This document shows positions 22,220 through 23,061 of a stretch of DNA of 64,000 bases, in pieces. The notes under the pieces were generated by a model. The model worked only from the letters and a program-made list of their open reading frames with translations. It ran no database searches and was not told where the DNA came from. Numbering within the stretch: position 1 is the stretch's first letter; each line of letters opens with the position of its first letter. The DNA is from Escherichia phage VB-EcoM-WM. The position numbers and the translations under genes are program-made. Where the stretch lies: sequence record PQ014731.1; one strand, given 5' to 3'.

Positions 22220-23061
22220 AAATAACATTGTGGCTTCGTGCAGCGATGCACGTCGAAAACCTCTTTAATTGACGGGAAGGCTAAGTTGACTTTTACACCT
22301 AAACATGGTAAAAGCTCAATATGCTAATCCGCAGCGAAGACTAAAGGGGTGTAGTTAAAATGGCTAGATCAGCTGATTATCACGGGTATACCGTGTTTGA
22401 TGATGGAACAATACCTTTATCGAAACGTGATCATACAACAATGTTTTGTTTTGATAATGGTCGAGGTTACCTTTGCGTGACCATGTTCATAGAGGGGAAG
22501 CAGTACACAAAAGGTGTCCACCACTTAGTTGCTGAGTGCTTTGTATCAAACCCTGATCCTGAAAGGCTCACATGGGTGAACCATAAGGATGGAAATAAGT
22601 ACAACAATGCATACTGGAACCTGGAGTGGACCACCCCTGGTGGAAATATCAAACACGCCTACGATAATGACCTCAGAGTAAGGCCAGTCGGCGAGTATAA
22701 TGCCAATGCTGTGCTGACCGAGGATGAGGTAATGGAGATTTGTGAACTGTTACAGAGCGGTCTACGACAATGTGAGATTAGGGATCTTGGGTATCCTTAT
22801 GAAACGGTCAGAGCCATAAAGCAAAGAAGACAGTGGAAACATGTCTCTAAAAACTACACCTGGTAGTAACGTTCAGAGACTATCGAAAGCATAGCTCCAA
22901 CATAGTTTGGTGTGAAGAAGCGAGTAGAGTAGGCCAGCAAGTGCGGTCGAAATGAGAGGTGCCTTGGTAACAAGGCAGTGAGATAGTCCGATCCATACGG
23001 GAAACTGTATGGCTATGCACGTAATGGTGCGGGGTAGCTTAACGACCTACCTGAACTATTG
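22220..23061 (+). mobile_element. group I intron in DNA polymerase gene
   Basis: 5' splice site after U (caT), last intron nt G; P7-like pairing GACUAUC (22877..22883) / GAUAGUC (22983..22989); splicing gives YYH|DEYQLQV. Confidence 0.7.
22360..22866 (+). CDS. HNH homing endonuclease (intron-encoded)
   Basis: VNHKDGNKYNNAYWNLEWTT HNH_3-type motif; own RBS; lies wholly within the intron. Confidence 0.8.
   Translation: MARSADYHGYTVFDDGTIPLSKRDHTTMFCFDNGRGYLCVTMFIEGKQYTKGVHHLVAECFVSNPDPERLTWVNHKDGNKYNNAYWNLEWTTPGGNIKHAYDNDLRVRPVGEYNANAVLTEDEVMEICELLQSGLRQCEIRDLGYPYETVRAIKQRRQWKHVSKNYTW

Follow-up and report, generated by a model that had tools for sequence, protein, structure and literature searches.

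The interrupted DNA polymerase gene

The window, that is the whole stretch of 64,000 nucleotides analysed here, comes from a Vequintavirus (an rV5-like E. coli myophage), and its plus strand, on which all parts of the polymerase locus described below lie, carries a gene for a family A DNA polymerase in two pieces. When the 4.6-kb polymerase region was used as a query, 124 phage records matched, the best of them being Escherichia phage Mangalyan (100% coverage and 94.4% identity). Exon 1 (18827..22219), as defined by the ORF listing and by alignment to the polymerase of phage Murica, ends with the His codon CAU at 22217-22219. This is followed by AAA and UAA, and the ORF as listed (18827..22225) has the C-terminus ...RRIIYYHK*, i.e. 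the unspliced frame continues beyond exon 1 with a single Lys codon before the UAA stop (22223-22225). Exon 2 (23062..23415) opens with GAU GAG, the codons for Asp-Glu of motif C, and its product ends with ...GRNWGDCH at position 23412, followed by the stop codon at 23413-23415; the ORF listed there (23059..23415) starts from TTG at 23059 and reads MDEYQLQV.... These results agree with an earlier note on this DNA, which had placed the first stop one codon after ...RIIYYH and had let the downstream ORF start on TTG with DEYQLQV and end with GRNWGDCH. Inspection of the sequence revealed neither an ATG nor an SD sequence in exon 2, and no SD sequence upstream of the TTG at 23059. The 842 nt between the two pieces (22220..23061) interrupt motif C of the polymerase, with its His codon on one side and its Asp codon on the other (YYH|DEYQ). 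Exon 1 is also the carrier of an intein of 323 aa (20840..21808), whose removal is predicted to give the protein junction ...SNGDAH|CNNAK....

The exon junction and the ends of the element

Joining 22219 to 23062 in silico gives ...YYHDEYQLQV...; the predicted spliced RNA reads ...UAUUACCAU|GAUGAGUAC... at the junction, and the predicted protein reads ...IIYYHDEYQLQVPDTPK across it. The two exon flanks joined in this way (738 aligned bases) were used as a query, and a contiguous match in a single piece was found in Murica and about ten other Vequintavirus records, the records with contiguous flanks including, besides Murica, slur16, nom, V18, inoa, A6-1, CarlMeissner, Gotham and others. In the Murica locus (L004) the exon 1 flank ends at position 1184 and the exon 2 flank begins at 1185, with the sequence ...TATTACCAT|GATGAGTAC..., and the junction cannot be shifted, given the mismatch of the bases next to it (T/A on the 5' side, G/G...A on the 3' side). 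Thus, the intronless alleles join exactly where the earlier note had proposed, after U22219 and before G23062, to give the YYHDEYQLQV form of motif C, and precise excision of 22220..23061 yields a continuous polymerase gene as in those alleles. Both ends of the element are fixed by the intronless alleles together with alleles that carry an ORF-less insertion at the same site (see below).

In a global alignment, the spliced window protein is identical to the uninterrupted 925-aa Murica polymerase at 913 of 925 positions, with the intein as the single gap, and around YYHDEYQ the two are the same. The spliced product also aligns through the junction to ...AWVHDEIQV of T7 gp5 (RRIIYYHDEYQL vs AYMAWVHDEIQV), and the Asp of the aligned T7 motif is the catalytic Asp654 of motif C. 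Moreover, Pfam DNA_pol_A matches unspliced exon 1 only as a weak fragment (17.6 bits over 57 aa), whereas on the spliced product it scores 28.2 bits over residues 620-822, a stretch that includes the junction (residue 808).

The element as a group I intron of the IA2 type

The element, from A22220 to the terminal G23061, is identified as a group I intron of an IA2-like subgroup by the RF00028 covariance model, by the alleles described above and by covariation. A scan of the whole window against Rfam at gathering thresholds (50 bits for RF00028) gave no match. In E-value mode, the model against which the earlier note had proposed to check the element aligned over its full 253 positions to 22210..23011 with 29.6 bits (E-value 2.2e-5 in a local search and 1.3e-3 for the whole window), short of the gathering score of 50. 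The score of the window copy is this low because a 510-nt insertion, the ORF, lies in P6a and another 68 nt follow P7. The ORF-less copies at the same site score 73.7 (JEP1), 64.7 (rV5), 91.2 (Avunavirus 19-1-2) and 77.3 bits (Vibrio phage K460), and all four exceed the curated threshold of 50 bits; the 328-nt intron of JEP1 is 99.0% identical to the ORF-bearing copy of FV3 over an aligned 96%. The full-model alignment, the ORF-less copies above the threshold and the covariation bear out the group I identity that the earlier note had assigned from the letters. Pectobacterium phage CB7 has an intron at this site that scores 46.6 bits.

An explicit model of the fold was built with P1, P2, P3, P4, P6, P7, P7.2, P8, P9, P9.1 and P9.2, P3 and P7 being treated as a pseudoknot, and covariation was scored on an alignment of ten distinct same-site introns from five genus-level groups. 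Standard pairs occupy 98.8% of the 592 cells (10 introns, 60 modelled pairs), and double-sided changes occur at 22 of the 60 pairs (66 cells); in the window copy every one of the 60 modelled pairs is standard. None of 500 shuffles reached the observed values for pairing, double changes or covariation, and when the 3' partners were slid by 1-3 columns only 32-41% of the cells were paired, with 0-5 double-change pairs. MAFFT mis-registers P4 for K54rec4 and A5-4 as read by eye, and the two 'unpaired' P4 cells in these introns are alignment artefacts, since UGCUGG/UCAGCA is fully paired after a shift of one column. Covariation therefore backs the fold from P2 to P9.2, the P3/P7 pseudoknot included. 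In addition, the MFE fold computed without constraints for the ORF-less twin recovered P1, P2, P3, P6a, P8, P9, P9.1 and P9.2 (z = -2.4).

P1 (22216..22233) is formed by CCAU of the exon and AA of the intron (22216-22221) with UUGUGG (22228-22233); it is also seen in the RF00028 alignment, places the wobble pair U22219·G22230 at the splice site and is the same in all 10 homologues. A candidate P10 of 4 bp, read from the sequence, joins CAUU (22226-22229) to GAUG of exon 2 (23062-23065), and the terminal G (G23061) is shared by each of the 17 introns that were extracted from this site. P2 (22237..22252) is a hairpin of CGUGCA, a GCGA loop and UGCACG that is also found in the MFE fold; five of its six pairs are compensatory, and the variants CGUGCA/UGCACG, CAUAGA/UCUAUG and UGUGAG/CUCACA occur. 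The 5' strand of P3, CCUCUU (22260..22265), pairs with GAGAGG (22954-22959) over 6 bp, which are 100% paired, with two compensatory changes. The region 22270..22336, drawn from the RF00028 alignment, the covariation model and the MFE fold, holds P4 (22270-22276 with 22328-22333, A22272 bulged), then an extended P5/P5a/P5b arm (22279-22325) and the 5' strand of P6, GCG (22334-22336), whose 3' strand in the covariation model is CGU (22870..22872).

In the 3' half, the 5' strand of P7, GACUA (22878..22882), pairs with UAGUC (22984-22988) in all sequences and forms the pseudoknot with P3; U-A is replaced by C-G in three sequences, the helix taking the form GACUA/UAGUC or GGCCA/UGGUC. The longer P7-like segments pointed out in the earlier note, GACUAUC (22878-22884) and GAUAGUC (22982-22988), are indeed both present, but only their inner 5 bp are conserved in the relatives. 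Between P7 and P3' (22885..22948) lie an expanded P7.1 region, a G-U-A linker (22929-22931) and P7.2 (GGCC 22932-22935 with GGUC 22945-22948), in which C-G, G-C and A-U are all found. P8 (22961..22976; GCCUUG, a GUAA loop and CAAGGC) has four compensatory pairs among six and appears as four different stems across the homologues. The last hairpins, within 22993..23051, are P9 (22993-23000 with 23005-23012, GAAA loop; four compensatory pairs), P9.1 (23016-23020 with 23027-23031; one compensatory pair) and P9.2 (23033-23037 with 23047-23051; three compensatory pairs), and the MFE fold agrees with each of them. The IA2 subgroup is defined by extra P7.1 and P7.2 helices between P7 and P3', joined by G-U-A (PMC3428280). 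An invariant GUAG (22929-22932 in the window) stands directly before the covarying P7.2, and simple GAAA-capped hairpins were read by eye at the expected position of P7.1 in rV5 and K54rec4; no convincing fold was found for the expanded P7.1 segment of the window (22885-22927). With the G-U-A, P7.2 and the hairpins of the relatives at the P7.1 position, the intron fits the IA2 definition.

Distribution of the intron and its P6a segment

The full 842-nt element is present in 32 records at 94-99% identity, for example in FV3 (JQ031132; 99.0% identical over the 842-nt gap) and in HeinrichReichert (MZ501073; 96.9%). In a spread sample of Vequintavirus genomes (22 full-length records), 11 are intronless, 8 carry an intron without the ORF and 3 an intron with it. 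ORF-less insertions at the same site are 276 nt long in rV5, EPFV3, Aya and 241Ecol014PP, 328 nt in JEP1 and 329 nt in JLBYU08, and the JEP1 element is the core of the window copy with a 14-nt hairpin in the place of the 528-nt ORF segment. Thus, the empty site, two types of ORF-less core and ORF-bearing introns coexist in genomes that are at least 92% identical. Furthermore, introns stand at the same codon boundary in Certrevirus, Seunavirus, Klebsiella, Pakpunavirus and Vibrio phages, and the phages with this site occupied include those of Klebsiella, Salmonella, Pectobacterium, Pseudomonas and Vibrio.

P6a is bracketed by the anchor strings GCGAAG and AACGUUCAG in the same-site copies except CB7. 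The segment from GCGAAG to AACGUU is a hairpin of 14-19 nt in the ORF-less introns and a closing helix of 10-11 bp with unrelated sequence in the ORF-bearing ones, and the same slot holds non-homologous closing helices or short hairpins in eight variants. One of these hairpins, CAUCC-GAGA-GGAUG, is common to an ORF-less form and to a different genus, Avunavirus 19-1-2. In the window, the P6a insertion that carries the ORF (22340..22867; cofold -18 kcal/mol) is closed by ACUA (22340-22343) with UAGU (22864-22867) and by GGGUGUAGUU (22347-22356) with AACUACACCU (22852-22861).

The HNH endonuclease ORF

The ORF in P6a (22360..22866) encodes an I-HmuI-like HNH homing endonuclease of 168 aa, as assigned by its matches to the I-HmuI structure (PDB 1U3E; E 3.7e-6, residues 12-100) and to PHROG 59 'HNH endonuclease' (E 6e-38). 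An SD-like G run, GGGGUG (22346-22351), lies 8-13 nt upstream of its AUG, and the complete HNH ORF that the earlier note had recognized, with a ribosome-binding site of its own, is borne out. The SD-like G run is contained in the 5' strand of the P6a closing helix, 4 nt ahead of the AUG, which suggests that translation may be damped in the folded RNA; by this reading of the model, the helix may limit translation of the ORF from the folded intron. In a scan of the intron for promoters and terminators, no candidate exceeded the expectation from shuffled sequence. Homologues of the ORF at the same site, in Klebsiella and Salmonella phages and in other coliphages, are 50-55% identical with a conserved core, and the intron of the Pseudomonas Pakpunavirus SPA01 holds a visibly similar ORF.

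It could be argued that the intron splices but that the ORF is a decaying passenger without homing activity, which persists since precise loss is rare. The ORF reaches only 17.7 bits with Pfam HNH_3, below the cut-off of 24.8, and Asp74 of I-HmuI is replaced by Asn in the alignment to 1U3E; moreover, ORF-less derivatives such as JEP1 and JLBYU08 exist, which is what the homing cycle would lead one to expect once an intron is fixed. However, the reading frame is intact in every copy examined, and codon differences from two relatives are mainly synonymous (synonymous to non-synonymous, 19:6 and 16:5). H75, N87 and N96, the residues with catalytic roles in I-HmuI, are all retained, and the core is still conserved in the Klebsiella and Salmonella homologues at 55% identity. 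In addition, the intron is still polymorphic in the population, so that targets for homing still exist. Decay of the ORF thus seems unlikely to us, and purifying selection on it, together with the presence/absence polymorphism, is consistent with a putative endonuclease activity.

Comparison with introns of known behaviour

The CB7_50 intron of Pectobacterium phage CB7 was found to be spliced by RT-PCR and Sanger sequencing (PMC7344957). It has the identical insertion point, ...RRIIYYH|DEYQLEV (CB7_51 ends with ...RRIIYYHK*, and CB7_49 contains LL|DEYQLEV), and its 5' end from P1 to P3 and its 3' half from P7 to P9.2 are homologous to those of the window intron. In contrast, its HNH protein has 127 aa and only 22% identity to the ORF in the window, a promoter-like TTGACA-N17-TATGAT was seen by eye ahead of the ORF, and its 5' half is without the GCGAAG and AACGUUCAG anchors that bracket P6a elsewhere. 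The 3' strand of P4 and P6 could not be traced by eye in the CB7 intron, and likewise P4' and P6 in the phiTE intron. Because of these differences in the 5' half, the experimental precedent is a same-site relative and not an identical ribozyme.

Position 881 of E. coli Pol I, presumably the His of the H881-D882-E883 motif C, is the position that is split in the window. According to PMC3428280, IA2 introns with an HNH ORF in P6a were described in 2004 at 'site 881' of Pol I in the T7-like phages PhiI and W31. These introns thus resemble the present one in the family A polymerase of an enterobacterial phage, the IA2 type and the position of the HNH ORF, where the match of the sites follows from the 'site 881' statement (PMC3428280) and from the Pol I numbering. 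They reside in podoviruses, whereas the intron of PQ014731.1 resides in a 137-kb myovirus. Introns of the SPO1 type are likewise IA2 introns in a family A phage polymerase and encode nicking HNH enzymes, I-HmuI being the closest solved structure to the ORF in the window, but they occupy site 674 (the TGRLSS..PN region) and not motif C, in phages of Gram-positive hosts (PMC3428280). A relative with an intron at site 674 was found as well (L019). The td and nrdD genes of phage T4 also have IA2 introns with an in-frame stop soon after the 5' splice site and an endonuclease ORF looped out from a peripheral helix, the start region of the ORF being paired in the intron structure; they differ in that the enzymes are of the GIY-YIG kind and the host genes are others. 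A second group I intron is present in nrdD of the window.

Splicing or an unspliced split gene

The two-piece gene could in principle also be explained without RNA splicing, if an HNH cassette had been inserted and the two polypeptides (1132 aa and 117 aa) assembled. For such an arrangement there is a reported precedent in NrdA of Aeromonas phage Aeh1, which is split by mobE. Most GenBank records give two separate 'DNA polymerase' CDSs with no intron annotated (in FV3 and rV5 the exons are separate genes), a TTG opens the downstream ORF, and one HNH 'intron' of CB7 (CB7_245) did not splice (PMC7344957). However, the break falls between His and Asp-Glu of one catalytic motif, and the TTG at 23059 has no SD sequence ahead of it, nor does exon 2 have an ATG. 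Furthermore, an endonuclease cassette is no explanation for the 276- and 328-nt insertions at this site, which are ORF-less and yet score 65-74 bits as group I introns; the 22 compensatory pairs mean selection on RNA structure, and the CB7 intron at this very site does splice. We therefore regard an unspliced split as highly improbable. A chance resemblance to a group I intron, i.e. a non-ribozyme spacer removed in another way or an artefact of sequencing or assembly, would be in line with the absence of an Rfam match at gathering thresholds, but it is effectively refuted by the recurrence of the 842-nt element in no fewer than 32 independent phage records (94-99% identity), by its full-length covariance-model alignment with covariation and defined ends, and by the RF00028 scores of the ORF-less copies.

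Discussion

Given that the boundaries are defined, that the ribozyme fold is conserved and covaries, that the HNH homology comes with purifying selection and that the element is patchily distributed among near-identical genomes, we are very confident that 22220..23061 is a mobile group I intron of the IA2 type in the family A polymerase gene of a Vequintavirus, with an HNH homing endonuclease ORF of its own. The splicing chemistry in this phage would then take the following course. Transcription would run through the intron and the RNA would fold into the core from P1 to P9.2, where an external guanosine would attack after U22219, wobble-paired with G22230 in P1. The candidate P10 (GAUG 23062-23065 with CAUU 22226-22229) would align exon 2, and the freed 3'-OH of exon 1 would attack after the terminal G23061. 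Ligation would restore motif C (...YYH|DEYQ...), while translation of unspliced RNA would end two codons into the intron. As to the activity and target of the endonuclease, the I-HmuI-like 168-aa HNH enzyme, encoded by the ORF looped out from P6a, would most probably nick the polymerase gene of co-infecting relatives that have no intron, close to the insertion site, and recombinational repair would then copy the intron into the nicked allele (homing). Translational control of the enzyme could come from the closing helix of P6a, which holds the SD-like sequence and may limit how much of it is made from the folded RNA.

The element is of a known, ordinary selfish kind, because relatives have it annotated and a homologue was shown to splice. 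In the record of the BASEL phage HeinrichReichert (MZ501073), the polymerase is a two-piece joined CDS that encloses a 'putative homing endonuclease', and the BASEL paper set the intron boundaries by means of comparative genomics. The records of FV3 and MZ501073 have the same intron, ORF and site as the window and carry no structural or experimental description; most such Vequintavirus records are without the intein of the window. The rV5 genome paper discussed introns only in the terminase gene and treated the 775-aa product of exon 1 as the polymerase. Accordingly, no new mechanism is involved, and the practical value lies mainly in the correction of annotation. In most public rV5-like genomes, among them that of FV3 and that of the type phage rV5, the polymerase is entered as two or three unrelated genes. 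The actual enzyme is a spliced protein of some 925 aa, which in the window also undergoes intein processing, and the 775-aa polymerase of the rV5 paper is truncated.

With less than even confidence, we suggest that this site keeps all stages of the homing cycle, that the HNH gene exactly replaced a P6a hairpin, that the closing helix ties translation of the enzyme to folding of the intron, and that the enzyme may affect the competition between co-infecting Vequintaviruses. If this is true, the introns at this site would be a natural before-and-after record of the invasion of a pre-existing intron by an endonuclease gene. The locus offers a natural series for intron gain and loss and for endonuclease invasion, along with an intein in the same gene.

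Intervening elements in the polymerase and nrdD genes

Besides the group I intron at motif C, the DNA polymerase gene carries an intein of 323 amino acids within exon 1 (positions 20840..21808, + strand), which starts with CYSGDTQILT, ends with VAVCGN and is followed by Cys as the +1 residue. Alignment places its insertion point at NGDAH/xNN in the phage polymerase (the slash marks the point), the counterpart of NGDIH/TKN in T7 gp5, and the polymerases of Murica and of relatives at roughly 78% coverage lack this intein. Its C-terminus is Gly-Asn rather than the usual His-Asn, and family models back it only weakly, with E 0.004 for TIGR01445 (the N-terminal region of inteins) and E 7.7e-6 for the AceL NrdHF intein in the PDB (6ZGQ); a Pfam search of the intein gave no match. 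LAGLIDADG-like motifs were seen in it by eye. Since an intein and a group I intron lie in one polymerase gene, both RNA splicing and protein splicing are needed.

A second group I intron candidate in the window (61822..62583, - strand) interrupts nrdD, whose exons lie at about 62584..63744 and 60844..61821 on the same strand. Positions 61872..62106 (-) match RF00028 with 32.9 bits (E 1.3e-4). After NVTSMG, the last residues of exon 1, come KL and a stop codon, and exon 2 goes on with CRSFLSKY, so that the joined reading is TSMG/CRSFL. In the candidate P1, AUGGGU/GCUCAU, position 62584 forms a U·G wobble, and the intron would end in G at 61822. Inside lies an HNH ORF of 183 amino acids (61972..62523, -), with weak matches to Pfam HNH_3 and to I-HmuI (NUMOD-like).

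Introns and annotation in related phages

Several database entries list the polymerase exons as separate genes, among them the RefSeq genome of the type phage rV5 (NC_011041), FV3 and three others (L001, L002 and L006). The polymerase length given in the rV5 paper is 775 aa, and the small ORFs rv5_gp222 and gp221, called inside a 276-nt intron without an ORF, are spurious.

The polymerase genes of the Certrevirus CB7 (L010) and Klebsiella phage K54_rec4 (L012) contain one more group I intron further upstream, which has an HNH gene as well, at L010 2036..2485 (RF00028 47.0 bits at 1895-2565) and L012 587..1036 (39.1 bits at 445-1116), respectively; the window polymerase has no such upstream intron. 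A near-consensus sigma-70-like sequence, TTGACA-N17-TATGAT, was found by eye in the motif C intron of CB7 (L010, about 3040..3100), just upstream of the HNH ORF CB7_50, which suggests that this endonuclease is transcribed independently. No comparable promoter-like sequence was found in the window intron.

Escherichia phage ECO104 4-5-2 (43 kb) has a group I intron (L019 846..1532, RF00028 51 bits) at the SPO1-type polymerase site, GRLSASNP/NMQQLPR. Its P7-P9.2 half is similar to that of the window intron, and its ORF is a different one. Related ribozyme modules are thus present at each of the two classical sites of insertion in polymerase genes.
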